Below are positions 3,532 to 59,005 of a stretch of DNA of 64,000 nt, in pieces. Location: contig OZ244112.1 of assembly GCA_965215675.1 (NCBI GenBank), forward strand, positions 2,994,352 through 3,058,351, in the 5' to 3' direction. Every line of letters begins with the position of its first letter. The stretch's first letter is position 1. A model generated the notes under the pieces. The model was given only the letters and a program-made list of their open reading frames with translations. It was not told the origin of the DNA and did no database searches. The position numbers and the translations under genes are program-made. Source of the DNA: Dehalococcoidia bacterium (GTDB taxonomy: Bacteria; Chloroflexota; Dehalococcoidia; Lucifugimonadales; UBA3495).

Positions 3532-4149
3532 CTACGGAAAACTCCATTGAAATGGAGCGTAGTGGCCGTTTTTGCCGGTGTTGTCCCAGACCATGCCGTG
3601 GTCGGTGTACTCGGCGCGAACGCCGCGGGCCAAGTACAGGTCGCGGTTGACCCCGTGCCCGGTGTTGGACAACAGCATAGCGTCGTCCCGGCCTGGGATC
3701 TGGATCGGCTCGACACTGAAATCCATCACGCCCGGGACGTTCACCGAATGGACCTTGCCCTCAACCCGAAAGTCGATGGGTACGTAGCCAATGCCCATAA
3801 AGTTCTCGGTCATGGCGCGCCACCGTTCGGCAGGTCCGCCCATATCGCCCGACAGGATCTGCTCCAGCGCCGCCCTCTGCGACTCGTCGGCCCCCTCGTC
3901 TATGTACAGGGCCGAAGTCCAACCGCCGGCCGCCATCGGGCCCGGCGTGAAGTTGGCGGCAATGAAGTTCAGGCCATCGAGCGACACGCCGTTCAAATCG
4001 CCCTGCTCGATGTGGAATGCGAGGGCAACGTCGCAGTGACCCTCGGTGGGTTCGATGTTGGTTCCCCGAACGATGCAGGGACAGAGGATCTCGCAGTTGC
4101 AACTTTCGAAGTATTCGCCCTTGAGGTTCCAGCGACTGTCGGCTGCCAT
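3532..4149 (-). CDS. DUF1326 family protein
   Basis: N-terminus WNLKGEYFESCNCEILCPC matches the DUF1326 hallmark (W.L.G.Y.E.C.C...CPC). Internal ATG at 4149 (MAADSRW) is preferred over 4179 because of family length and a G-rich SD. Confidence 0.7.
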   Translation of the reverse strand: MAADSRWNLKGEYFESCNCEILCPCIVRGTNIEPTEGHCDVALAFHIEQGDLNGVSLDGLNFIAANFTPGPMAAGGWTSALYIDEGADESQRAALEQILSGDMGGPAERWRAMTENFMGIGYVPIDFRVEGKVHSVNVPGVMDFSVEPIQIPGRDDAMLLSNTGHGVNRDLYLARGVRAEYTDHGMVWDNTGKNGHYAPFQWSFP

Positions 4150-4240
4150 GTCTGCACCCCCGTGAATAGATGGGCGCATTGTAAACCATCACGTTAAATG
4201 GGGTCAGCGACCGGGAATACCGGGCTCTTTTTCAGTAACA

Positions 4241-4400
4241 AGTGGGAAAGAAATGTCCCACCGCTGTCCCATTTTGTCCCATTTTCCCCGCCGGCCGGCG
4301 GGGAATTCGCTGGAATTAAAGCTGAAAGACCGTCCCTCAAATGCGGTGGGACAAAAATTTTCTGTTTCCCGCCCCATTTTGTCCCATTTCTGCTTTCGGG
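4241..4400. repeat. Bipartite phased A/T-tract module with AAAATTTT core (copy A1)
   Basis: TGTCCCA boxes at 4254, 4265, 4275 and 4380 (direct) and TGGGACA at 4347 (inverted). Perfect GC palindrome CCCCGCCGGCCGGCGGGG at 4286-4303, and AAAAATTTT at 4353-4361. Homologous by eye to 40001-40135; its right half is homologous to 10378-10432 and 10891-10953. Confidence 0.6.
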
Positions 4401-4536
4401 CTTTTTTGCGGGTTTTTCAGTGTATTTAACCCGTTGCCCCAGAGGACATCCCTTGATCAGAGGGCCAACTGTAATAGAACATATACTCTTAAATAGAGTA
4501 CAGGGGATCATGCGGTCTGACAAGGGGGGAACGTCA

Positions 4537-4710
4537 CAGGGCGATCGTGTCCTAATTCTCAGCGCACAAAATTGGTCTGAATGGCGGTGGAGATGAGAGT
4601 GGCAGTGCCTCCTTCGGCTACGGGTGCGAGGGTAGACGGGGGTCTGGATTCCCGCCTGCGCGGCAATGACGACTTATAGGGCCTCCGGCGTTTAAGACGC
4701 GATTGCCCTG
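4537..4710. mobile_element. MITE-like 174-bp element, copy 1 (15-bp terminal inverted repeats, flanked by CGTCA)
   Basis: Left end is CAGGGCGATCGTGTC (4537-4551) and right end is GACGCGATTGCCCTG (4696-4710), which are near-perfect reverse complements. CGTCA lies immediately on both sides (4532-4536 and 4711-4715). An internal GGATTCCCGCCTGCGCGGCAATGAC hairpin sits at 4646-4670. Confidence 0.6.
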
Positions 4711-4715
4711 CGTCA

Positions 4716-4889
4716 CAGGGTAATCGCGTCTTATTACTCAGCACACGAAATTGGTCTGAATGGCGGTGGAGATGGGAGTGGCAGTGCCTCCTTCGGTTCC
4801 GGGTGTGAGGGTAGACGGGGGTTTGGATTCCCGCCTGCGCGGCAATGACGACTTATAGGGCCTCCGGCGTTTAAGACGCGATTGCCCTG
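4716..4889. mobile_element. MITE-like 174-bp element, copy 2 (tandem with copy 1, period 179 bp)
   Basis: Left end is CAGGGTAATCGCGTC (4716-4730) and right end is GACGCGATTGCCCTG (4875-4889). It is near-identical to copy 1 along its length, with a few substitutions. The internal hairpin is at 4825-4849. Confidence 0.6.
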
Positions 4890-5057
4890 GGGAGCGTCAC
4901 CAAATTGGCCCTGACGCACCCACTTGCGATGGAGGGGTTACTTCATTGCTATTGGACGATTCCGGGCAACCCGGTCCCACTGAATTCACGGGTACTGCGG
5001 AGGCATTACAATACGCGAACACAATAGGGCTACATTGAACGACGGGGGGCAAGAGGC

Positions 5058-15036: not shown

Positions 15037-15125
15037 AGCGGCACGGCAGAGTGGTCGAATGCGACGATCTGAAAAACCGTTTGACATCCCAACCCATACA
15101 AGTTCGAGTCCTGTCGCCGCCTCCA
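15037..15125 (+). tRNA. tRNA-like sequence (long-variable-arm body, GAA at the anticodon position, encoded CCA); probably degenerate
   Basis: Canonical T-arm ACAAG-TTCGAGT-CCTGT, then CGCCGCC-T-CCA. D-arm is GCA-GAGTGGTCGAA-TGC and the anticodon arm is ACGAT-CTGAAAA-ACCGT (one mismatch). The acceptor stem has A:C mismatches at 1:72 and 7:66, and the 17-nt variable region has no obvious stem. Confidence 0.4.
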
Positions 15126-47669: not shown

Positions 47670-48917
47670 ATGAAGGCCGAAATAATGGGTATCGGCACCG
47701 AACTGCTGATGGGCGAACTCAACGATACCAACGCTGGCTGGATTGCGACGCGACTGCCTCCATTGGGTATCACGCTGCAATGGGTAACACTGGTGGGAGA
47801 TGACTTGGGACAGCTGACCCACGCCTTCCAACAGGGTCTCGAGCGTTCAGACATCATATTCACCACAGGGGGCCTGGGACCGACGCAAGACGACTTGACC
47901 CGCGAGGCAGTGGCTGCGGCTCTCGGAGAGACCCCGGCGGTGCAGGAGGACATGGTCGAGGAGCTGAGAAAGTATTTCCTGAACCGCGGCCAGGACATGC
48001 CCACCCACAACATCAAGCAAGCCTGGCTGATTCCTTCAGCTGACTTCATACCCAACCGCAACGGGACCGCTCCCGGCTGGTGGGCGGAGCGAAACGGCAA
48101 GATCATCATTATCATGCCTGGGCCGCCAGTGGAAATGCAGGCCATTTTTCGCGACCACGTTGAGCCACGTCTAAAGGAACTGGTGACCGAGGAAGTCACC
48201 ATCACGCGAAACGTCAAGACCATGGGACTGGGCGAGGCTTCAGTGGACGAGATCATGTCGGAGTATTTCGGCCACGAGAATCCCTACCTCGGCATCTACT
48301 CCAAGGCCGACGGAATCCACCTGCGGGTGATCGCCAGGGCCGTCGACGAGGCGACCGCCCGCCACATGATCGAGCCGGTGGAACAGGCGGTCCACGATCG
48401 GCTGGGCGAGTACATCTGGGGCTACGACGACGAGACTCCCGAGCAGGCCATCGCCCAGGCACTGCAGTCGCGAGGAAGGACCCTGGCGGTGATGGAGTAC
48501 TGCACCGGCGGCTTCCTGACCAACGCCATCACCGAAGCCAACGACGCCTGGAAACACTTCCGGGGCGGCATCGTGGCCTTCGGCGCCGAGTCGATGGCGG
48601 CGTCGGGCGTTCCTCCGGCGCTAATGGACAATCACGGAGCGGTCAGCCAGGAGGCGGCCAACGCCATGGCCTCGTCGGCGCTGCTGCAGATGGAAGCCGA
48701 CTACGGAATTGGAATCACAGGCTCTCCCGGCCCCGCAGAGCTGGATGGCCGCCCCATGGGCCTGGCCTTCGTTGCCATTGCTCGCGCCACCGTCGCGGGT
48801 CCTCAGGTTATCAAGGAACTGGAGCTACGAGTGCCCCCTCGCCGCATCACCATCAAGCGCCGGATCAGCAACCAGGCGCTCATCGAACTTCGCAAGCTCG
48901 TTGACGCAGGGGAGTAG
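47670..48917 (+). CDS. cinA: CinA family protein (competence/damage-inducible; nicotinamide-nucleotide amidohydrolase PncC domain)
   Basis: MKAEIMGIGTELLMGELNDTN N-terminus, ..IFTTGGLGPTQDD.., and C-terminal ..EYCTGG... Confidence 0.9.
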   Translation: MKAEIMGIGTELLMGELNDTNAGWIATRLPPLGITLQWVTLVGDDLGQLTHAFQQGLERSDIIFTTGGLGPTQDDLTREAVAAALGETPAVQEDMVEELRKYFLNRGQDMPTHNIKQAWLIPSADFIPNRNGTAPGWWAERNGKIIIIMPGPPVEMQAIFRDHVEPRLKELVTEEVTITRNVKTMGLGEASVDEIMSEYFGHENPYLGIYSKADGIHLRVIARAVDEATARHMIEPVEQAVHDRLGEYIWGYDDETPEQAIAQALQSRGRTLAVMEYCTGGFLTNAITEANDAWKHFRGGIVAFGAESMAASGVPPALMDNHGAVSQEAANAMASSALLQMEADYGIGITGSPGPAELDGRPMGLAFVAIARATVAGPQVIKELELRVPPRRITIKRRISNQALIELRKLVDAGE

Positions 48918-48924
48918 AGTCGAA

Positions 48925-49800
48925 ATGAGGGTCATTGCCTCCATTCTGTTCCTTTTGCCAGTCCTCGTTCTTGCGGCGCTCGCCTGCGGCGGCGAGGAGG
49001 CCGATCCCGCTACCGTCGCGGCACCAACTCAGGTTGCAGTAGTCCAGGCTACGGCGAAACCCGAGACCGCCACTGAGGAGTCTCCTCAGGAAAGGCAAGA
49101 ACCCACGGAGCCCATCCCGACGGTGCAGCCAACTGCTGTCGCCACCCCCACTGAGCCTGCGCCTACCCCTGAAGCCACATCGGTTCCTCAACCAACGGAT
49201 ACGCCCCAGCCCACACCTAATCCGGAGGACACGCCGACACCGGCCCCGACGGAGGCGTCAGAGGATCCGTCGGCCGACAGTGGGGCAGGACCGAACTCGT
49301 TCATAGTGGGCGAGGGGTCGGAGATAAAGTTCATTGTGAAAGAGGAGACCAGTTTCGCGCCGGTGCGCTTTGACGCAGAGGTTTCCGGAACCGGGCTTTC
49401 GGGCTTCGCCAACCTCGACGGCAGCCCGTCGGTGATCCTGCTGGACCTGCATGCGCTGGAGAGCGACCAGAGCTTCCGTGACGGCTACATTCGTTCTCGA
49501 ATGTTCCCAAATACTCCAACTGCGACCGTAGTAGTGGAAAGCCTTCCCGACCTGCCCCAGAGTTTCTTTGATGGCGAAAAAACGACCGGCACGCTGGCAG
49601 GCTCTCTACAAATTGGAGAGACGGTTACCACACTGACTTTCGATGTTGAAGCGCGACACGACGGCAACGTGATAAACGTCCTGGGACGCACGACCTTTAC
49701 CTGGGACGACCTGGGCCTGGGAAAGCCAGTCTTCGGCCCCGTTACGTACCTGGGAGACGAGGTCCAGGTCCAAGTGCTGATAGTGGCCCGCGAGCGGTAA
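48925..49800 (+). CDS. YceI-like domain lipoprotein
   Basis: Signal peptide plus lipobox AALAC (ATG 48925), a P/T/E-rich tether, then a YceI-like beta-barrel pattern (..IKFIVKEE..VRFDAEVSG..G.L.IGETV..LTFDVEA..). Confidence 0.6.
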   Translation: MRVIASILFLLPVLVLAALACGGEEADPATVAAPTQVAVVQATAKPETATEESPQERQEPTEPIPTVQPTAVATPTEPAPTPEATSVPQPTDTPQPTPNPEDTPTPAPTEASEDPSADSGAGPNSFIVGEGSEIKFIVKEETSFAPVRFDAEVSGTGLSGFANLDGSPSVILLDLHALESDQSFRDGYIRSRMFPNTPTATVVVESLPDLPQSFFDGEKTTGTLAGSLQIGETVTTLTFDVEARHDGNVINVLGRTTFTWDDLGLGKPVFGPVTYLGDEVQVQVLIVARER

Positions 49801-49907
49801 GTAAACCTACCTTTTTTAGTAAGGTTTTAAGATAGGCCGACGGTTGAGCTAAGCAGCTTGGTGTAGGCAGGGCAGTAAAGGGGGAGCCAAGCATCAGAGA
49901 GTCAGGA

Positions 49908-51536
49908 TTAGTTACCTTGCTCGAACACAGTCGCCAGAGGTTGAACCCGAGCTTTTAGTCTGTCAGCGAATTCAGCGTCGCGTCCGATCCTTGAGATTAA
50001 CGCTCTACGATAATGTTGCTTGGAGATCTCCAGCGCCTTCTCTATTTCAGCAAACGCATTTGTGTGCCTTGCCGGGTAACGGGTTATGATTCCTGCCAGG
50101 TCGTTTTTCTCCAAGAGGCCGTGGAAGCGCTCTAATTCATCCCTGAACAATTGCTGGGCGTCCACTTGGATTGGTTGAATAGTGTCGTTCTGAATGGTCT
50201 CCCAGTTCGGCATTTGACTATGAGCCTTTTGTCGTACTTCGCGTTCACAGCGTCGAGCAGCCATCCTCTCTGGCACACCGGTGTCCTTTAGTGCGGCCAA
50301 AGCTGCGGACCTAGCGGCTTCCTTCAACTCATTTGCATCCCCACCCAGAAAATCAGCCTGCTGTTCTGCCAAAGCCGCGATCGCCTCTCCACAGTAATAG
50401 ATAGACTCCACGGAATAGCCATTTAATGCAAAAATCCCTTTCTGCGATAATTTGAAGATCTCGTCACTATTCCTGTTGTCCGCATCAATTAAGCCACAAG
50501 CTGTTACTTCGTGTAATTCATTAGCTTCCTGTAGGCTCTCCACAGACTTAATCACCCTATCGTAGTCCCCCACCGGAAATACAGAGATATCCGGAAACAG
50601 TGCCGAATAGAGCTGCTTGTCTAAGCTTTGCGATTCCCCCTCCACGAATAATACCCTCCGGCGAGACCCAAGTATGGCCCGCTTGACATCCTCAAGTAGA
50701 TCGGCATCCCCCTCTAGCAAGTTGGCGTCCCACGCAGCAGCTGAGTTGCCATTCCATTGGCAAGACCTCAGGATCAGAACTGCGGCATCGGGATCGGAAA
50801 TCGGCAGACCAATCTCATGAGTAGATACAACAAATGGGCAGTCAGGGCGCAAGGCGAACATCGCTGAAAGCAAGGGTTCAATGATTGATCTATGCAAGTG
50901 ACGTTCTGGTTCGTCGATGAGCAAGACCATACCTTCAGCCACTGTCAAGACTTCGGCTGCAAGCAAAACAGCATTACGCTCGCCATCGGACATTTGCGCC
51001 ATGTCGTATGGTTCACTGGAGCCTTGATGCCATGCCAGAATTTGTTCAGTGCCTGAATACTCAATCGAAACTTTCAATGTAGCGATTGTGAGCAGTTCAT
51101 TAATTGACTCGAACGGAGACTTTTCACCGCTAGGGATTCCGTCGGCTTCCTCTCGATAACCTGCCCTCATAAGGTCCCTAATGCGACGGGCTTGAGCGTT
51201 GTCTTTGGCTGTCAAACTGTACAAGACGGACGACAATCTTATCTGAGGGTCATATTCGCTATATCGGTATTGTGGGTTTCCCTCTCGTCTCTGAAGGTTT
51301 TGAAAAAATTGACTGGTGACTCGGGCCGTGGTATTGATCTCTGCACTTTCCAGAAAGGTCTGTCGGTGAGCTGACATGCGCCGAACTTTGCCAGAACCAA
51401 GTTGCGTAACAGCATGTTGGATAAGAGCGGACTTTCCCGATCCGTTGGGACCAACCACATAGAGGGGTCTTCCAGGTTCAAGAAGAATTGCCAGATCTAC
51501 ACCATTGGTTCGCTTGATCGCCAGTTCCATAGCCAC
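49908..51536 (-). CDS. ABC-type ATPase fused to DUF4435/OLD-type TOPRIM domain (PARIS AriA-AriB-fusion-like or class-1 OLD-like defence nuclease candidate)
   Basis: Walker A GPNGSGKS, signature-like MSDGERNAV, Walker B VLLIDEPERHLH, H-loop VVSTHE. The C-terminal half has RVLFVEGESQSLDKQLY..FPVGDYDRVI..GLIDADNR (TOPRIM E and D-x-D). The gene is visibly more A+T-rich than its flanks. Confidence 0.7.
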   Translation of the reverse strand: MAMELAIKRTNGVDLAILLEPGRPLYVVGPNGSGKSALIQHAVTQLGSGKVRRMSAHRQTFLESAEINTTARVTSQFFQNLQRREGNPQYRYSEYDPQIRLSSVLYSLTAKDNAQARRIRDLMRAGYREEADGIPSGEKSPFESINELLTIATLKVSIEYSGTEQILAWHQGSSEPYDMAQMSDGERNAVLLAAEVLTVAEGMVLLIDEPERHLHRSIIEPLLSAMFALRPDCPFVVSTHEIGLPISDPDAAVLILRSCQWNGNSAAAWDANLLEGDADLLEDVKRAILGSRRRVLFVEGESQSLDKQLYSALFPDISVFPVGDYDRVIKSVESLQEANELHEVTACGLIDADNRNSDEIFKLSQKGIFALNGYSVESIYYCGEAIAALAEQQADFLGGDANELKEAARSAALAALKDTGVPERMAARRCEREVRQKAHSQMPNWETIQNDTIQPIQVDAQQLFRDELERFHGLLEKNDLAGIITRYPARHTNAFAEIEKALEISKQHYRRALISRIGRDAEFADRLKARVQPLATVFEQGN

Positions 51537-51579
51537 AAATTGATGCCTCGTTTCAAGGATTGTAGGATACTATTCTACC

Positions 51580-52731
51580 TCAGTTGACCACCAGCCCCTG
51601 ACCGAGCTGCGTCAGCGTCTCGCAGCCGGCCGGGGTCGTGATGACGGTGTCGCCTACGGACATGGCGAGCTTGGTGTTGGAGTCGAGCAGGATCATGTGC
51701 AGGAACATGACCATGTTGGGCTGCACGACGACCGGGTTGTCGCGGTAGATCATGGGCCAGTCCATCCACGTAGGCGGGTAGAGGGCGCCCAGGCTGTAGC
51801 CGCAGGCGTTGAGCTTGTGATCGCCGAACCCGGCGTGGTCCAGGGCCTCGGCGTGGGCCTGAAAGATGTCGCCAAAGGTGGCGCCGGGAAGGCAGGCGTC
51901 CTTGCAGGCCTGCAGCGCATCTGCGCAGGCGGCGTGCATGGCCACGTGCCGAGGATCGGGCTTGCCGGTCAGGATGGTGCGCATCAGGCAGGCGTGGTAG
52001 TGGCGGTAGGCGCCGCCGAACTCCAACTGTAGTTGGTCGTTGTCGCCCAGGGTCCGGTAGCCAGTGAAATTGCGAACGTTCAGCGCGGTCTCGCCGGAAC
52101 CGATGATGAACCGCGTGGCCGTGTAGTCACCGCCTCCTTGAAAGACCGCCGAGGTCATCGCCGCCAGCACGTCCTGCTCCGGCGTGCCTGCTTTCGCCAT
52201 ACGCTGTGCTGCCAGCCACGCCTCGTCGGCCAAGACGCCCGCCTGACGCACATACTCGATTTCCGCGTCGCTCTTGACCAGGCGCAGGCGGCTGACCAGC
52301 TCCGAGGCGTCCTCCCAGTCGCACTTGCCCTCCATCGCAGCGCGGACGTACTCCCATCGACTGCCGGTGAGGCACCACGCCTCCAGCTCCACGCCGACCC
52401 TCTCGCCGCGACAGCCCTGCTCCTCGAGGATGCCCCACAGGTCCTGTCCGGGATTGACGCCGGCGCTGTCCACCCAGACGCGAATGTCCTCGATCACCGA
52501 CGTCAGGTGGGCCTGTCGAAGGTCCGCAGACCGGGTGAGCAAGACCAGTGTGCCGTCGGCACCCAAATAGAGGCACTGAAACTGGGAATAGCCGGTCGTG
52601 TCGTACCCGGTGAGGTAGTACATGCTCTCCTGTCGGAAGATTAGCAGGGCAGCCAAGCCACTGGCCTGCAGCTCAGCAACCACCCTGTCCCGGCGAGACT
52701 TGAGCTCCTGTTCGGTGAAATGCAGAGCCAA
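51580..52731 (-). CDS. M24 family metallopeptidase/hydrolase (creatinase / Xaa-Pro peptidase / ectoine hydrolase-like)
   Basis: Creatinase-N-like N-terminus (..EL..R..RV..EL...GL.ALLIF..ES..YLTGY) and a pita-bread C-terminal domain. Confidence 0.8.
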   Translation of the reverse strand: MALHFTEQELKSRRDRVVAELQASGLAALLIFRQESMYYLTGYDTTGYSQFQCLYLGADGTLVLLTRSADLRQAHLTSVIEDIRVWVDSAGVNPGQDLWGILEEQGCRGERVGVELEAWCLTGSRWEYVRAAMEGKCDWEDASELVSRLRLVKSDAEIEYVRQAGVLADEAWLAAQRMAKAGTPEQDVLAAMTSAVFQGGGDYTATRFIIGSGETALNVRNFTGYRTLGDNDQLQLEFGGAYRHYHACLMRTILTGKPDPRHVAMHAACADALQACKDACLPGATFGDIFQAHAEALDHAGFGDHKLNACGYSLGALYPPTWMDWPMIYRDNPVVVQPNMVMFLHMILLDSNTKLAMSVGDTVITTPAGCETLTQLGQGLVVN

Positions 52732-52837: not shown

Positions 52838-53797
52838 ATGGCTACCGTCAATACCGTGCTGGGTACGATTGATTCCGCCGACATGGGGTTCACGCTGCCC
52901 CACGAGCACCTGATCGACTCGTCCGCCGGCATACGCATCAGCTACGGCGAGCTGGAGCTACGGGACCGGGCCCTGGAAATGGCGCTGGAGGACTTCCACA
53001 AGGCCAAGGCCGGCGGCGTCGACACCGTCGTCGAGGTTTCGCCCATGGATCTGGGCCGCGACGTGGCGCTGATGAGGGAGGTCTCGCGGGAGACAGGCGT
53101 CAACTTCGTCTGCTGCACCGGCTGCTGGCTGGACATCCCACGCAGCTTCTGGTGGCGCGACAAGGAGTTCATCGCCGACCTGTGGGTGCGCGAGATCGAG
53201 GAGGGCATCGACGGCACTGGCATCAGGGCTGGCATCATCAAAGTGGCCACCAGCGACCCCATCACCGAGCATGAGGAGCTGATGCTGCGCGCCTCGGCCC
53301 GCACCCACCTGCGCACCGGCGTGCCCATCACCACGCACACCCCGCCCATGTCCCGCGTCGGCGAGCGGCAGGTGCAGATCCTGACCGAGGAAGGTGTGGA
53401 GCCTCAGAACATCTACGTCGGCCACATCAACCAGACCCTCGACCCGGGCTACCACCGCGAACTGGCGCGCCTCGGCGTCTGGCTGGGCTGGGACATCAAC
53501 AACCCCAGGGGCCGCCCTCACCTGCCGCCTTGGGAGCAGCGGGCCGAGTACCTGAAGAACCTGCTGGACGAGGGCATCACGTCCAACATGATGCTTTCCC
53601 ACGACTGGAACGTGGTGCTCTCGAGGCTCGGGTCGTCAGGCTTCCCCAGCCGCGACGAGAACCCCGACGGCTTCCTGTGGCTAAGCCGCGCCTTCATCCC
53701 CAAGCTGCAGGAGCTGGGCGTCTCTGAGGCAGCGGTGGAGCGGATGATGGTCACCAATCCGCGCAAGCATTTCGAGGGTGTGCAGGCTGGGGACTGA
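52838..53797 (+). CDS. phosphotriesterase family (PTE/PHP) amidohydrolase-fold protein
   Basis: G.TLPHEHL metal-binding start motif, ..IKVA.., ..THT.. and ..LSHD.. motifs of the PTE family. Confidence 0.85.
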   Translation: MATVNTVLGTIDSADMGFTLPHEHLIDSSAGIRISYGELELRDRALEMALEDFHKAKAGGVDTVVEVSPMDLGRDVALMREVSRETGVNFVCCTGCWLDIPRSFWWRDKEFIADLWVREIEEGIDGTGIRAGIIKVATSDPITEHEELMLRASARTHLRTGVPITTHTPPMSRVGERQVQILTEEGVEPQNIYVGHINQTLDPGYHRELARLGVWLGWDINNPRGRPHLPPWEQRAEYLKNLLDEGITSNMMLSHDWNVVLSRLGSSGFPSRDENPDGFLWLSRAFIPKLQELGVSEAAVERMMVTNPRKHFEGVQAGD

Positions 53798-53879
53798 ACA
53801 GCCTATAGAGCGAGGTAGACCGGCGGCCACAACGAAAAAACTGGAGCGCGTCGGAATTTCCCAAAGGTAATAGGCTGAA

Positions 53880-55493
53880 ATGCGAATATTCGCAGCGTTT
53901 CTCGTGGCGATGTGTGTGGTGTCAGGCATCGCATGCGAAGGCTTCGAGGCTATGCCAACCAGGGACCTTGAAGCCAGGGTTGCAGCGGGGGTCCAAGCCA
54001 CGTTGGAGGCAAACGCCGCACTGGACGCCACCGTGGAGGCGCGAGTCGCTGCGACGCTGGCGGCACATCCTCCCTTGCCAACACCGGAGCCGACTGCGAT
54101 GCCACGAACAATCGCGACGCAACCTCCTACGGCCACACCCCTGCCAGCGACGGTACCCACACCAACTCCTCTGCCTATCTCGACTCAGCGCCTGTACCCA
54201 ACCGCAACGCCGTATCCAATTGCGATTCCGTTGCCGACAAGGACGCCAACCCCCGAAGTGCCTCCAGGACATTTGGAATCCGTTCAGGAATATGCGGCGC
54301 GAATGGCAGGCGGTCCAGGAGCGATCTACGTTGGCGACCTGAACCAACTGGCCGGTCCCGCCGTTGACCATGGGATGGGTGATTCCCAAGGTATGGTGCC
54401 GTTGGAATCGCTGGAGGGCCACCTATTTGTCTACGAGTCCCAGTACTACAAGAATCTGCTTGTCCGGGCAAGGCTAGACAATCCCACAGCAATGACCACC
54501 CGATTGAATGACCCCGTTCATATCAGTTACGCCTGCGTTAACCGCGCGTTGCTATGGTGCGATCTCGCGAAAAAATATCTTGCTCCCAACCTGTCGCGAC
54601 GCACCAGAGGGCAGATCGTCATCGAATTTGCGTCATACCGGGAACTGGCCATTGCGGGTTCCGACACGCTCGAGTTGTTGAGGGCCGGCCTACTTCCAAT
54701 GGCGGAAGTCTTCCCTGTTTTTGTATCAGGGGAGCTGCCCCAGATGGATATTCTCGGTCTTTACGGCCTATACACCGACCGGGCTCATTCATACGAAGCT
54801 GTAGTCGATGTAATGCCTGATCTTCAAGAACTCATTGTCCGAGAGACCGGTGGTTATCCAATCGGCGTGAACTGGCAAAACGGGGGCGACCTTTACTTGT
54901 TCAGCGAGAGGCCTGTGGAACAGCTGGCAGACTTCCAGGGTCTGAAAACGCGAAGCTTCAACGCGCCACTCTCCGACTGGATTGAGGGAATGGGTGGAAC
55001 CCCCCAATTCGTGGCAGTTTCGGAAGTATATACCGCTTTGGCTAGAGGCATCACCGACGCCTCTATTTCCACCGCGGAAACGGGCTACGGCCAGCAATGG
55101 TATGAGGTCTCGAGCTACTTCGGTGGCCCCATTGTCTCCTGGCCTGTGAGCTTCAATGTGATCAACGCGGAGGTATGGGACAGCATCCCCATAGACCTCC
55201 AGGAGATTATGAAAGAAGAGGTGGCGAAGCTCGAACTGGAAGCACTGCGACTGGCCGCCGTCCAGAATGACTACGGCCCTCAAAAACACTATGCCGTGGG
55301 TTTGGAGCACATCGAGTTCGGTCCGGAATTGAAAGCCCAGAGCGAACAGGCGGCGCTCGAATCCGTGATTCCCGGCTGGGTTAAGCGGCTGGGCGGTCCT
55401 TCGGCGCCTTTCGTTGACGTCTTCAACCGAATTCACGAGTCGCTGCTGGGTGTGCGTATCGAGGAGGACGGGACTGCGGTCAAAACCCGATAG
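53880..55493 (+). CDS. TRAP-type transporter solute-binding lipoprotein (DctP family), paralog 3
   Basis: Lipobox SGIAC and a long A/P/T tether. Core LKTRSF..VSEVYTALARGITDASIS..QWYEV..WDSIPIDLQEIMKEE is collinear with paralogs 1 and 2. Confidence 0.75.
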   Translation: MRIFAAFLVAMCVVSGIACEGFEAMPTRDLEARVAAGVQATLEANAALDATVEARVAATLAAHPPLPTPEPTAMPRTIATQPPTATPLPATVPTPTPLPISTQRLYPTATPYPIAIPLPTRTPTPEVPPGHLESVQEYAARMAGGPGAIYVGDLNQLAGPAVDHGMGDSQGMVPLESLEGHLFVYESQYYKNLLVRARLDNPTAMTTRLNDPVHISYACVNRALLWCDLAKKYLAPNLSRRTRGQIVIEFASYRELAIAGSDTLELLRAGLLPMAEVFPVFVSGELPQMDILGLYGLYTDRAHSYEAVVDVMPDLQELIVRETGGYPIGVNWQNGGDLYLFSERPVEQLADFQGLKTRSFNAPLSDWIEGMGGTPQFVAVSEVYTALARGITDASISTAETGYGQQWYEVSSYFGGPIVSWPVSFNVINAEVWDSIPIDLQEIMKEEVAKLELEALRLAAVQNDYGPQKHYAVGLEHIEFGPELKAQSEQAALESVIPGWVKRLGGPSAPFVDVFNRIHESLLGVRIEEDGTAVKTR

Positions 55494-55547
55494 AGGTTGT
55501 TTATGCCCTCAAGAGCCGGCAGAGCACCGCTACAAGACCAATTTAAG

Positions 55548-55583
55548 AAGGCCCGCCCCGAATAACCAGGGCGGGCCTTTTTT
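55548..55583. terminator. rho-independent terminator between convergent genes
   Basis: AAGGCCCGCCC-cgaataacca-GGGCGGGCCTT followed by TTTTGCC. Confidence 0.8.
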
Positions 55584-55615
55584 GCCAGTGCTACTGACGT
55601 CTTACCGGAGGTGCG

Positions 55616-58600
55616 CTACCGCCGGACGAACCTGCGGGCGGTGAGCTCGCGGTAGAGCATGGGCAGGCGCTCGGGGAGGGCCCAGATATCGCCCAGAACC
55701 TCGTAGCCCATGTCGCCGCACATGCTCTTCAGGTAGTCGTGCCCCGCCTTGTCCACCGTGAGGCAGAAGGGCGTGATGCCCAGGTTGCGGGCCTCCACCA
55801 GCGCCATGTGGGTGTCGTGGACGGCGTATTCCTTCTCCACGCCCTCGCGGCTGTAACCCCGGTCCTGGGGCCGCCCGTCGCTGACCAGGAACATGATCTT
55901 GGTGTGCGCGTCCTGGTTCTCCAGCTTGGTGATGGCGTGGCGGATGGCCGCCCCCATCCGGGTGGCGTGCAACGGCGTGATCTTGTCGATGCGCCGCTTG
56001 ACCTTGTCGTTGAAGTTTTCGGTAATGTCCTTGATCACGTAGAACTCGACGTTCTCACGGCCATAGCCGGAGAAGCCGTAGATGCCGTAGGTGTCCCCGA
56101 TTGACTCCAAGGCATTCACCAGCAGCGCCGTGCTCTCTTTTTCAAGGTCGATGATGCGCTTGTAGTTGCGGCGCACCAAGCCCTCGCGGCGACGGCGCAG
56201 CCAGACCATGTACTCGACGGGATCATCGGGCGCGTCGCGGTCGTCCACCATCTGGCGGCCTTCGTCGATGGCTTCGGCGGTGGATGCGCTCATGTCCAGC
56301 AGGAACACCACGGCCACGTCGCGGCGGTTGCGGTTGCGATGCCAGTAGATCTTGTCGTCCGGCGGGATGTTCATCTTGAGGTCGACCCATGCCTCAAGCG
56401 TCGCGTTGAGGTCCAGGTCTTCGCCGTCGATGAGCCGGTAGGTCTTGCGCATGCTCTCCGGCATGATCAGCTCGAACTGCCGCCGGATGTGGGCCGAGAG
56501 TGACGCGTAGTTCTTGAGAGAGTCCTGGTAGAAGTTTATGTCGCCCTCTTCTACCGTCTTTTCCTTGACGATGCACCAGCGAGGCTTGTAGTCGTTGGCG
56601 CGGAAGTCCCATTCGTCGTACAGGTAGGTTTGGGGCTCGCGCGTCTCCAGCTCGCCGCCCTGATCGTCGTCGTGCATGAGCGGGCCGTAGCCCTGACCGG
56701 GCTGGGAGTTGGGCGGCGGGGCGCCTGCCTCCTTCATGATGTTCTGGGCGAAGGTAGTCATGGCGTCAGTGATGTCGCCTTCCTCGGCATCCATCTCCAG
56801 CTCGTCGCTGTCCTGCAGGAGCTGTTCCAGCATTTCCTGGGTCATCGGCTGGGCCTCGCCCTCCTGATCGCCGCTGTCGGCCTGCAGGCGAGTGAGCAGC
56901 TGTACCATTTCGGGTTTGAAGTCGCCGCGGTAGTCAACGGGTTCGGGCGACTCGTAGGACTCATCGCCCTCCTGGTTCTCGGCGCGCTGGTCCATGTCGG
57001 CCTGCAACCGGTCGACCAGGTCCTGGTACTCCTCTTCGTTGAAGTCCCCGGGTTCCTCCAGGTCCTGCTCCTCCCAATCTTCCTCATCCTCGGTCTGGTT
57101 GGGCAGGCGGGTAATGATCTCGTAGGCACGCAGCGTGGCCTCGGCAGTGTCCTCCACGTTGGCCTCGGCAGTGCGAAGCTGGTGGAGGATGCGCGACAGC
57201 ATCTCGGCAACCTCTTCGTACTCCTCGGGAACGGGCAGGCCGGTGAATTTTTCAAGGCTCATGTGAATAAGCAACTCGACCATGGCTTGCTGCAGGGGCA
57301 TCTGCTGCAGGTCCGGTCGTCTGTCCAGCGTTTCGGTCTGCACCCGTGAGGAGGCACGGCTGATGCCGGGGTATTCCACCTTGATGCGGTAGTCGAGACG
57401 GCAGTCTTCCAGCACCGTGAACAGGTCGAAGGCAAGCTTGCCGTTCTCGAACAGGGACAGGAACCGCCCAATGTCGGTGTAGGCCCGCATGGACCCTGGG
57501 CTTTCCGGCACCGGGCTTTCCATGGCAGTCTGGGAACCGTCAGGCCCCACCTCCATGAAAGTGACTTCGACCTCAGCCTCGCCGCCGGCCATCTCGCGGG
57601 CCAGTTCGATCATCGCCTGGCGGGCCGCCAATTCCTCGGCGCGCTTGGCGTTGATCTCATCCTCCAGGGCATGGCGGCGGTCTTCGAACTGGGTCGCGGG
57701 AATTTCGAAATTGAACTCGAAGCTGCCGAATTCCAAGTGGCTGACCTGATGGGTGGAGACAACTTTGAACCAGGAGAAGTTGTCCTGCTTGTTCGAGTAA
57801 TGGTCAACGACGGGCGGCAGGAACACCCTGGACCCATCGGTGGAGGCGGTGTCCTCGTCCACCCAGCCGATGTTTCGGCGAACGAGTTCCTGGGTGTTCA
57901 TAATTTCGACGCCGGCGCCTGACAGGGCGCGGCAGTAGAGCCGCAGGATGCCCTTGACGCGGTCCAGTTCGAGGCTGGAGGAAAGGGTCTCGAGCATCTG
58001 CTCCGAGGTATTGGACTCGATCTTGAAGAATGCGATTCCGCTCTCAGGATTCTCCTGAAGCAACCGCATTCCGTGCTGGTACCAGGTGTCCAGTTGGCTT
58101 ACGGTGATGCGGGTGAGCACACTGTCAAGGCTGCGCAGGAAGGGCGGCACAGCCTCGGGTGCCACCGCGACCAGCTGGTCGCAGAGGTCGAGAATGTAGC
58201 CCTGGTTGCCCTGCGGTACGCGCCCCAAGGCTTGGGTTCCGTCGGCGAGGAACCGCGACGTGTCGCGCAGACCGACTTTGGCCAGACGTTCGCCCAGCTT
58301 GAGGAAGCGACCGGTCTGGGCCTCGTCCACGTGCTGCAGCGCCCGCGGCACCAGCTCAAGGCAGGTCTTCACCTCGCGCCAGCTCGTGTCGATCAGGGCG
58401 CGCGTCATCGCCAGGAAGGGCTCGCGTTCACGCCCCATTCCCGGGAGAACATCCTTACCCAGCGTCAGGCACTCGCTGGCCACATCGTAGGACTTGTATG
58501 ACAGCGCCTCTATGAGGGAGGCAAAGACTTCAACGTCCCAGAATGGCAGGCTGCGCACCAACTCAGGGGAGACCTCGAAAAACTTGGCAGCCAGGGTACT

Positions 58601-59005
58601 GGACTTCCAGGTGCCCTTGTACAGGCTGCGGCCCAGGCCCGCCCAGCGCGGAATGTACTGGGGCCGCAGGTTGGGCACGATGGCCACGCTGGACTTGAAG
58701 AAAGCCACCGCCAGCGTGGGCGAGTCCTGCGCCAGGTAGGTGCCGCAACGGGCCCACTGCATGTATGACGGGAACGACAGGAAACGACATATCTCGGGGC
58801 TGACCTTGTAATACTCAATTGCCGCCTCCCAGGACCGGATGGTCTGGGAGCCGATGGAGACCCCTTCCTTGGCCCAGAGACCAACTTCGTCGGGGCCGAA
58901 GGCCTGTTTCACAGCAGTTACGGATCCCTGATAGGCCTCGAGTACGGCCGGAGGCAGTTTGCCTAGTTCCTGTTCGATATCGGGTGTTGGAGCGCTGCTT
59001 GTCAA
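55616..59005 (-). CDS. giant vWA-domain protein, CbbO/NorD-like partner of the CbbQ/NorQ AAA+ ATPase
   Basis: 1129 aa. The C-terminal vWA has a MIDAS motif VVFLLDMSAST (D-x-S-x-S). The central region has a highly acidic stretch (..EDEEDWEEQDLEEPGDFNEEEYQD..) and CbbO/NorD-like helical repeats (..VVSTHQVSHLEFGSFEF..). Confidence 0.75.
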   Translation of the reverse strand: MTSSAPTPDIEQELGKLPPAVLEAYQGSVTAVKQAFGPDEVGLWAKEGVSIGSQTIRSWEAAIEYYKVSPEICRFLSFPSYMQWARCGTYLAQDSPTLAVAFFKSSVAIVPNLRPQYIPRWAGLGRSLYKGTWKSSTLAAKFFEVSPELVRSLPFWDVEVFASLIEALSYKSYDVASECLTLGKDVLPGMGREREPFLAMTRALIDTSWREVKTCLELVPRALQHVDEAQTGRFLKLGERLAKVGLRDTSRFLADGTQALGRVPQGNQGYILDLCDQLVAVAPEAVPPFLRSLDSVLTRITVSQLDTWYQHGMRLLQENPESGIAFFKIESNTSEQMLETLSSSLELDRVKGILRLYCRALSGAGVEIMNTQELVRRNIGWVDEDTASTDGSRVFLPPVVDHYSNKQDNFSWFKVVSTHQVSHLEFGSFEFNFEIPATQFEDRRHALEDEINAKRAEELAARQAMIELAREMAGGEAEVEVTFMEVGPDGSQTAMESPVPESPGSMRAYTDIGRFLSLFENGKLAFDLFTVLEDCRLDYRIKVEYPGISRASSRVQTETLDRRPDLQQMPLQQAMVELLIHMSLEKFTGLPVPEEYEEVAEMLSRILHQLRTAEANVEDTAEATLRAYEIITRLPNQTEDEEDWEEQDLEEPGDFNEEEYQDLVDRLQADMDQRAENQEGDESYESPEPVDYRGDFKPEMVQLLTRLQADSGDQEGEAQPMTQEMLEQLLQDSDELEMDAEEGDITDAMTTFAQNIMKEAGAPPPNSQPGQGYGPLMHDDDQGGELETREPQTYLYDEWDFRANDYKPRWCIVKEKTVEEGDINFYQDSLKNYASLSAHIRRQFELIMPESMRKTYRLIDGEDLDLNATLEAWVDLKMNIPPDDKIYWHRNRNRRDVAVVFLLDMSASTAEAIDEGRQMVDDRDAPDDPVEYMVWLRRRREGLVRRNYKRIIDLEKESTALLVNALESIGDTYGIYGFSGYGRENVEFYVIKDITENFNDKVKRRIDKITPLHATRMGAAIRHAITKLENQDAHTKIMFLVSDGRPQDRGYSREGVEKEYAVHDTHMALVEARNLGITPFCLTVDKAGHDYLKSMCGDMGYEVLGDIWALPERLPMLYRELTARRFVRR

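Follow-up and report, generated by a model that had tools for sequence, protein, structure and literature searches.

What is a lone A+T-rich gene, encoding an ATPase joined to a putative nuclease, doing in the chromosome of an uncultured Dehalococcoidia bacterium? The gene, called ariAB here, lies on the minus strand at 49908-51536 of the window, by which I mean the whole 64,000-nucleotide stretch of contig OZ244112.1 that was analysed, and with its two spacers it forms an islet at 49801-51579. Judged by its sequence, it is a fused, single-gene form of PARIS (phage anti-restriction-induced system), AriAB, belonging to a class that computational surveys have already catalogued. What is new here is the genomic context: an uncultured Dehalococcoidia host, a fixed chromosomal slot, and the swapping of alleles. 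By analogy with two-gene PARIS, the product is probably a single-chain anti-phage protein, in which an ATPase sensor would govern a tethered TOPRIM nuclease as effector.

What family does the protein belong to?

The widest match is to the PADLOC model of fused AriAB (PDLC02982; E 1.7e-59, 199.9 bits), which takes in residues 22-534 of the protein and positions 45-563 of the 570 in the profile, the C-terminal helical region included. The separate PADLOC models also match, AriA at E 1.5e-11 and AriB (PDLC02983) at E 1.5e-11, the latter over profile positions 1-102 of 236 only. Pfam, where the cutoff is 27 bits for both families, finds AAA_21 at residues 27-244 (E 4.8e-11, 43.7 bits) and DUF4435 at residues 295-392 (E 3.6e-13, 50.3 bits), the latter again over only part of the profile (4-101 of 238). 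The pair AAA_21 (or AAA_15) and DUF4435, at a gathering score of 27 bits, is the rule by which Rousset 2022 detected PARIS, the fused ariAB form among them (PMC9122126). No second DUF4435 or ATPase gene is adjacent; ariAB stands alone. DefenseFinder or PADLOC would annotate it as single-gene PARIS, and as annotation the result is routine.

A preliminary description of the islet, made from the sequence, had already put the gene forward as a single-gene ABC-ATPase with a DUF4435/TOPRIM domain and a PARIS-type defence candidate, and the Pfam and PADLOC matches bear this out. Its further suggestion that the protein could be an undescribed single-protein variant does not survive, since the fused class has been described, has a PADLOC model of its own, and comprises at least 719 clusters at E<=1e-30 in a 50%-identity library. 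In Burman 2024 the fused genes make up two "merged" clades of eleven PARIS clades (PMC11464382); they derive, once, from the two-gene clade 9, and were modelled only with ESMfold (PMC11464382).

The strongest competitor is the view that the protein is instead a single-chain DNA nuclease of the OLD or Gabija kind, which would degrade DNA rather than tRNA and whose activity would depend on the level of nucleotides or on the condition of the host's DNA-repair machinery. The preliminary description had left "PARIS-like" and "OLD-like" side by side. By profile the first stands (DUF4435, AriB, AriAB) and the second falls: Pfam gives DUF4435 and no OLD-type TOPRIM among its matches at E<=1, AAA_15 stays below its cutoff (20.4 against 32.1 bits), and neither a GajA nor an Old model is among the best 25 PADLOC families, which include AriAB, AriB, AriA, AbiLi and PtuA. 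The derivation of the fused clades from PARIS clade 9 by Burman et al. (PMC11464382) also speaks against it. The case for an OLD- or Gabija-like nuclease comes from the fold, which is taken up below.

Relatives of AriAB are numerous. Among the scored candidates of a 90%-identity collection there are 3080 matches, and the best 120 are mostly about 540 amino acids (aa) long with the same two domains. They occur on small E. coli and Salmonella plasmids and on conjugative plasmids of Campylobacter and Rhizobium, where PGAP labels them "AAA family ATPase" or "DUF4435 domain-containing protein", and on 11 IMG/VR viral contigs. Carriage by a cultured phage was seen only in Oenococcus phage phi9805, at 22.5% identity. 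One phage-protein family, PHROG 25246, labelled "ABC transporter", matches the ariAB product over its full length (E 2.6e-49).

Stand-alone AriB on plasmids was considered and rejected. In tblastn, 89-95% of the C-terminal half aligned with "DUF4435 domain-containing proteins" that proved to be fused proteins of about 500-540 aa; the remaining plasmid candidates were one fragment and one probably frameshift-split copy. The latter is on Campylobacter coli plasmid pCCDM224L (L103:2219-3726), where two genes, for an AAA ATPase of 273 aa and a DUF4435 protein of 237 aa, overlap by 28 nucleotides (nt). Its fused counterpart, of 502 aa, is in pCJ14980A (L099:2733-4241). The split probably reflects a frameshift, with natural fission of ariAB as the other possibility.

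Architecture and conservation

The gene and the parts of its product are as follows.

49908..51536 (-): ariAB, fused PARIS gene, 542 aa; GTG start at 51536, alternative in-frame ATG two codons further on at 51530, stop codon 49908-49910
51327..51536 (-): ATPase N-lobe and Walker A, residues 1-70; invariant Walker A residues, AAA_21 and ABC_tran matches
51084..51326 (-): short helical insert of the ATPase, residues 71-151; predicted helices 71-84, 97-124, 128-137 and 141-151
50787..51083 (-): ATPase C-lobe, with MSDGER 182-187, Walker B LLIDE (D208, E209) and the H-loop histidine H240; invariant columns
50661..50786 (-): beta-hairpin and linker from ATPase to nuclease, residues 251-292; predicted strands 252-262 and 265-274, predicted helix 282-290
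50391..50660 (-): TOPRIM/DUF4435 nuclease core, residues 293-382, with E299, D306, D351, D353 and E377; Pfam and PADLOC AriB matches, predicted beta-alpha-beta topology
49911..50390 (-): all-helical C-terminal domain, residues 383-542; inside the PADLOC AriAB profile, outside the Pfam DUF4435 match

The translation contains every motif that the preliminary description had quoted: GPNGSGKS (28-35), with the Walker A lysine K35, then MSDGERNAV (182-190), LLIDEPERHLH (205-215) and VVSTHE (236-241) in the ATPase, followed by RVLFVEGESQSLDKQLY (294-310), FPVGDYDRVI (320-329) and GLIDADNR (348-355) in the nuclease. When 58 full-length homologues that share 46-74% identity with the window protein are aligned, the ATPase residues G29, N31, G34, K35, S36, M182-R187 (S183 included), D208, E209 and H240 are invariant in 58 of 58. 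The same holds for five acidic residues in the nuclease: E299, D306, D351, D353 and E377. The most conserved stretch, residues 181-220 (entropy 0.4), holds the signature and Walker B motifs. Variability is centred on the helical insert, where residues 81-100 (entropy 2.0) and 121-140 (entropy 2.3) rank with the 20-aa blocks that vary most, and on the C-terminal helical domain, where variability across the family is high at residues 401-420 and 441-480; the catalytic cores are the most conserved parts. The regions of AriA that contact the trigger are likewise poorly conserved, according to Burman et al. (PMC11464382).

The AlphaFold2 (AF2) model of the 542-aa protein has a mean predicted local distance difference test score (pLDDT) of 88.5, falling to 67-80 over residues 271-300, and a predicted TM-score (pTM) of 0.66. 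It predicts an ABC head with a helical insert of about 80 aa, a beta-hairpin and linker, a TOPRIM-like beta-alpha-beta core, and an all-helical C-terminus of about 160 aa. Residues 285-542 modelled separately give a pLDDT of 90.3 and a pTM of 0.85. The preliminary description had called the ATPase compact, with a short helical insert, and rightly so: Walker A and the signature motif are about 148 aa apart, against about 325 aa in AriA (taking the K39 position from PMC11464382), which makes the window protein about 175 aa shorter here. Residues 357-429 of AriA align to residues 171-245.

The C-terminal helical region, which that description could not assign, is still without a significant match in Pfam, the PDB or BFVD, and it does fall inside the AriAB profile. 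It is family-specific, with conserved MAARRCE (425-431), P443 and W445, and RYP (486-488). The isolated model of the nuclease half has no fold match in the PDB at E<=0.001 (Foldseek) and none of significance in BFVD, and the profile of that half finds no PDB sequence at E<=10.

It is the whole chain that brings an OLD- or Gabija-like nuclease back into consideration. In Foldseek its best PDB match is the OLD protein of Thermus scotoductus (6P74, E 9.4e-9), followed by GajA (8U7I and 8X5I, about 6e-7) and, lower down, by Rad50/SMC heads, PtuA and retron ATPases. The family profile matches GajA across the junction of Walker B and TOPRIM (E 1e-4), OLD and GajA too are fused into one chain and have a short insert of the dimerisation type, and AriA and AriB chains are absent from the 50 fold matches listed for each PDB search (whole chain and nuclease half). 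The TM-scores to OLD and GajA are nevertheless only 0.30-0.34, an architectural resemblance and not proof of family membership. I consider it unlikely, though still the best of the alternatives, that the protein belongs with these DNA nucleases and not with PARIS.

A variable slot in the chromosome

Where does such a gene come from, and what keeps it there? Its surroundings are these.

51537..51579 (-): upstream spacer of 43 nt, with a -10-like TAGAAT at 51572-51577, 2 nt past the M24 stop codon, and, 9 nt ahead of the GTG, a GAGG
49801..49907 (-): downstream spacer of 107 nt between convergent stop codons, from reading the sequence
51580..52731 (-): gene for a peptidase of the M24/creatinase type, the upstream neighbour
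about 48925..49800 (+): gene for a 291-aa lipoprotein-like product, the convergent neighbour

The preliminary description named an M24 hydrolase and a YceI-like gene as neighbours. The first is right; the second finds no support, the gene having no Pfam match at E<=0.01. Its product begins MRVIASILF..., with a signal that includes a cysteine, followed by a Pro/Thr-rich linker. In the list of open reading frames (ORFs) this gene begins with a TTG at position 48709 and overlaps CinA; on the identical contig L081 the call is 291 aa from about 48925.

The order of genes around the islet is conserved: vWA (1129 aa), a variable interval, PTE, M24, a second variable interval, the lipoprotein gene (in some cases), CinA and DUF4340. 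The flanking genes point to an uncultured Dehalococcoidia lineage as host: homologues of the M24 protein, 76-91% identical, are found in many metagenome-assembled genomes of Dehalococcoidia. ENA also has an identical contig of 10.5 kb. Eighteen species-representative genomes have M24 and CinA within 21 kb of each other, and in three of the 18 (L003, L022 and L004) AriAB follows M24, so the gene is, as had been suspected, variably present. Some sites are empty: M24 abuts the lipoprotein gene in L005 and L007, and only 313 nt separate M24 from CinA in L010. Other genomes carry DctP-type binding proteins, Uma2-family proteins, an insertion sequence (IS) transposase or a proteasome-like gene. With cargo so varied, the interval between M24 and CinA is a general flexible slot and not a dedicated defence island; a pure defence hotspot was rejected on the same grounds, most of the other occupants being DctP-type binding proteins.

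Genes of the Uma2 family, putatively restriction-endonuclease-like, occupy the slot in L011 (11225-12058) and L013 (11215-11976), and one lies near AriAB in L085 (1134-2066). A second variable slot lies at 53800-55600 of the window, between the vWA gene (55616-59005) and PTE (52838-53797), and holds a DctP-type binding-protein gene (53880-55493) whose G+C at third codon positions (GC3), 0.63, is below that of its neighbours. Elsewhere this second slot carries a GmrSD type IV restriction enzyme (L082), an IS, DctP and a Phd/YefM antitoxin (L083), a cytochrome c (L104) or an SDH-family protease (L105). In L104 the M24 gene itself (3804-4955) appears as a pair of separate ORF calls, one for Creatinase_N (175 aa) and one for Peptidase_M24 (192 aa): either a frameshift or pseudogene, or an assembly error, beside a recombination-prone slot.

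No integrase was found at the islet, and the flanking repeats or att-like sites are short and at chance level, as the preliminary description had read it. The sole tRNA gene of the window, tRNA-Phe(GAA), is at 15037-15125; with none beside the islet, this is not a tRNA-targeted insertion. A scan of the islet found zero sigma-70 consensus promoters, and since it does not call the -10-like hexamer upstream of ariAB, that hexamer is tentative. Such a hexamer (TAGAAT, TATACT, TATAAT or TACAAT) comes after the stop of M24, or of an M24 remnant, in the window allele as well as in eight of the 10 others in the slot; of the two exceptions, L106 shows no clear hexamer and L084 just a CAGAAT farther away. 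The only terminator-like site in the islet is inside the ORF, with none in the 3' spacer, and the spacer 49801..49907 folds no better than shuffled sequence (z -0.61).

Exchange of alleles

The ariAB genes in this slot are far more diverged than the genomes that carry them. Among AriAB-bearing genomes the flanking proteins are 87-97% identical, with synonymous divergence (dS) of 0.4-1.0, whereas AriAB proteins share 56-74% identity and their dS runs from 1.1 up to saturation. Nonsynonymous divergence (dN) between alleles is well below dS (e.g., 0.16 against 1.14, and 0.25 against 2.64), which points to purifying selection on a functional protein.

The sharpest comparison is that of L083 (9890-11900) with L003 (11040-12860). 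Their AriAB proteins are 58% identical, the genes 61% identical in nucleotides with dS saturated. The CinA side of the two is 99-100% identical in nucleotides, with CinA and DUF4340 at 100% (dS 0.01-0.02), and M24 and PTE are 95% and 97% identical in nucleotides. The identity breaks within the last 100 nt or so of M24 and resumes just past the AriAB stop codon.

Three other genomes retain what looks like the trace of such events. Directly upstream of AriAB lies a 3' remnant of an M24 gene, of 87 nt in L004 (12955-13041), about 262 nt in L084 (7578-7953) and 395 nt in L106 (4568-4959), 80-83% identical to the resident M24, which other genes separate from AriAB. The AriAB cassette thus travels with the 3' end of the donor's M24, which argues for homologous recombination through the flanks and not for a dedicated recombinase. 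Together the alignments indicate that alleles are exchanged in this way between genomes of one lineage.

All of the nearest protein relatives that were looked up (P0002, P0003, P0004, P0005, P0006, P0009 and P0029) are in the same slot, and the 11 slot genomes, the window included, form one clade in a neighbour-joining tree (built without bootstrap), apart from alleles at other loci. The idea of a single, recent insertion from some foreign source was rejected, because the 10 closest relatives share this slot and fall into one clade, and the donor M24 remnants are of the same lineage. The "old horizontal insertion" of the preliminary description is likewise too simple for what is a slot-resident, deeply polymorphic clade whose alleles pass between genomes. 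The locus shows, with the resolution of a single gene, the turnover of defence alleles in uncultured, slow-growing Chloroflexota, without integrases and with donor M24 remnants left behind.

It could be that all this movement serves only the gene itself, ariAB being a selfish or decaying passenger, a toxin-like cassette kept by addiction or hitch-hiking and of no current benefit against phages. Its patchy presence (3/18) and foreign composition would fit, as would the IS and unrelated cargo that share the slot and the frameshift-split copy on a Campylobacter plasmid. Decay, though, is hard to reconcile with an ORF that is intact in 11 of 11 slot alleles, with invariant catalytic residues and with dN well below dS, and I regard the passenger as improbable. 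That ariAB encodes a housekeeping ATPase of the ABC/SMC type (e.g., for DNA repair or translation) that is merely A+T-rich can be taken as effectively refuted by its variable presence and domain content: the best NCBIfam and PDB sequence matches are indeed generic ABC ATPases (ABC-F, EttA, BtuD), but no NCBIfam match is above cutoff, those found being far below and confined to P-loop or signature segments, and a gene with a DUF4435 nuclease domain that is missing from most close relatives, and hyper-divergent in near-identical genomes, is not housekeeping.

A puzzle of composition

The preliminary description had called the gene A+T-richer than both flanks. The effect is a strong one: at 0.496, the G+C of 49801-51579 is the minimum of all stretches of equal length in the window, where non-overlapping stretches of that length have a mean of 0.615 and a standard deviation of 0.025 (z = -4.7 for the islet; the next lowest is 0.554). 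The drop starts directly past the M24 stop codon and ends at the stop of the convergent lipoprotein-like gene, and GC3 is 0.50 in ariAB against 0.63-0.90 in eight neighbouring genes. On the three points by which that description had proposed to judge itself, then, there is a TOPRIM/DUF4435 match, the synteny is unlike that of a housekeeping gene, and the G+C is far from unremarkable.

Foreign composition would be easy to understand in a new arrival. All the slot alleles, however (the window, L003, L004, L022, L082-L084 and L104-L107), have G+C of 0.48-0.52 and GC3 of 0.47-0.56, next to M24 genes with GC3 of 0.84-0.89. They show no drift toward the GC3 of the host despite saturated synonymous divergence, an apparently long residence in a lineage of 61% G+C and donors from that same lineage. 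How does a gene keep a GC3 of 0.5 in a genome of GC3 0.85 while its alleles diverge to synonymous saturation? Selection for poor codons that limit the level of a toxic effector may be responsible, or the alleles may escape GC-biased gene conversion, being too divergent to recombine internally. An unsampled reservoir of lower G+C is also possible.

What might the protein do?

The mechanism of canonical PARIS follows published work (PMC11464382, PMC10802264, PMC12409363). Binding of the trigger, an anti-restriction protein of the Ocr type, frees AriB, which then dimerises (PMC11464382, PMC12409363), and in E. coli the nuclease cuts, in the anticodon loop, the tRNAs for Lys (UUU), Thr (UGU) and Asn (GUU) (PMC11464382, PMC12409363) by two-metal RNase chemistry (PMC12409363). 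From this analogy I infer the anti-phage role of the window protein, together with its trigger, substrate, oligomeric state and route of activation.

At rest, the ATPase head would keep the two-metal DUF4435/TOPRIM nuclease inactive. A trigger encoded by the phage would bind, probably to the variable helical insert, to the variable C-terminal helical domain, or to both. Binding of the trigger, coupled to the binding or hydrolysis of ATP, would rearrange the oligomer and let two of the tethered TOPRIM domains come together as a pair, which would cut tRNA of the host or some other essential nucleic acid. Both translation and replication of the phage would stop, the outcome being abortive infection or growth arrest. 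A tethered nuclease can't dissociate as AriB does, so activation would have to take place within the chain or the oligomer. In this scheme the helical insert is a candidate module for sensing or oligomerisation, and it or the C-terminal helical domain, or both, would provide surfaces for sensing or specificity.

The company kept by one relative lends weight to the proposal. An AriAB 49% identical to that of the window, in L086 (1-17644), is 20 nt downstream of a fused methylase/specificity gene of a type I restriction-modification system, with HsdR and Fic upstream and genes for AAA_15+DUF3226, AAA_16, HIRAN and NYN proteins downstream. This defence island is a contextual hint of an anti-anti-restriction role for the PARIS family. 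A defence role is also in keeping with the patchy presence of ariAB among syntenic genomes and with the plasmids and viral contigs that carry its relatives.

Several observations weigh against a PARIS-type mechanism. The step central to PARIS, in which the nuclease is set free, is not open to a fused protein. The ATPase lacks the 175 aa or so of AriA that make up the insertions IS1 and IS2, responsible for the propeller hexamer and for Ocr binding (PMC11464382, PMC10802264), so assembly and sensing are not simply copied from PARIS. Similarity to the proteins of known structure is slight: AriA in the PDB is matched at E 0.06 by phmmer and at about 1e-3 by the 58-sequence profile, over the signature and Walker B, and AriB is undetected by sequence profile and absent from the 50 best Foldseek matches of the nuclease half. 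The position in the slot proves nothing by itself about defence, since cargo such as DctP that has no part in defence is found there too, and I found no experimental work on any fused AriAB in the literature.

There is also a bolder version. The slot may hold an ancient balanced polymorphism, which would fit allele lineages that predate the species carrying them and that exchange by recombination through the flanks; and activation may be independent of release, distinct from that of canonical PARIS. The AriA insertions for propeller and trigger are missing, and the family-specific C-terminal helical domain could be the true sensor or the module for substrate specificity. I offer this combination only tentatively, as clearly less probable than a PARIS-type role as such.

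If the protein is indeed a PARIS-type defence, it would serve as a compact test case of how PARIS can fire with its nuclease tethered and without the insertions on which Ocr binding and the hexamer depend. The 11 natural alleles, which differ mainly in two helical regions, would provide a panel for mapping trigger specificity.

Comparison with known systems

The proteins that invite comparison all combine an ATPase with a nuclease. One is lactococcal AbiL (AbiLi/AbiLii), a member of the same group of defence systems with an OLD-like ATPase and a nuclease. AbiL is a two-gene system, and the PADLOC model of AbiLi matches only the ATPase half of the window protein (E 1.5e-10).

Gabija's GajA (8U7I, 8X5I, 8SM3), the second-best fold match, is also a defence nuclease in which an ABC ATPase is fused to TOPRIM. 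GajA works with the helicase GajB and is gated by nucleotide concentration. A GajB partner is part of Gabija, whereas no GajB-like gene is adjacent to ariAB in the window.

Class 2 OLD (6P74) and P2 Old are, like the window protein, single chains in which an N-terminal ABC ATPase, with a short helical insert for dimerisation, is followed by TOPRIM towards the C-terminus; the TM-score to OLD is only 0.30-0.32. OLD acts on DNA, and P2 Old responds to the inactivation of RecBCD. The window protein differs in having no OLD-type TOPRIM in its Pfam list, and its C-terminal helical domain is without a counterpart detected by Foldseek.

Two-gene PARIS of E. coli B185 (8UX9, 8V45-49) shares the ABC/Rad50-like ATPase and the DUF4435 TOPRIM nuclease. 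The lysine of Walker A, K39 in AriA, is K35 here, and the acidic site of AriB, E26/D30/D88/E90/E122 (PMC11464382), appears to correspond to E299/D306/D351/D353/E377, a pairing made by pattern and not by alignment. In canonical PARIS, AriA and AriB are separate and form an AriA6:AriB3 complex, whereas the window protein is one chain from a single ORF.

The closest resemblance is to the "merged" clades of fused AriAB: the same AAA_21 and DUF4435 in one polypeptide, typically of about 540 aa and with no partner genes. From these the window protein has no structural distinction.

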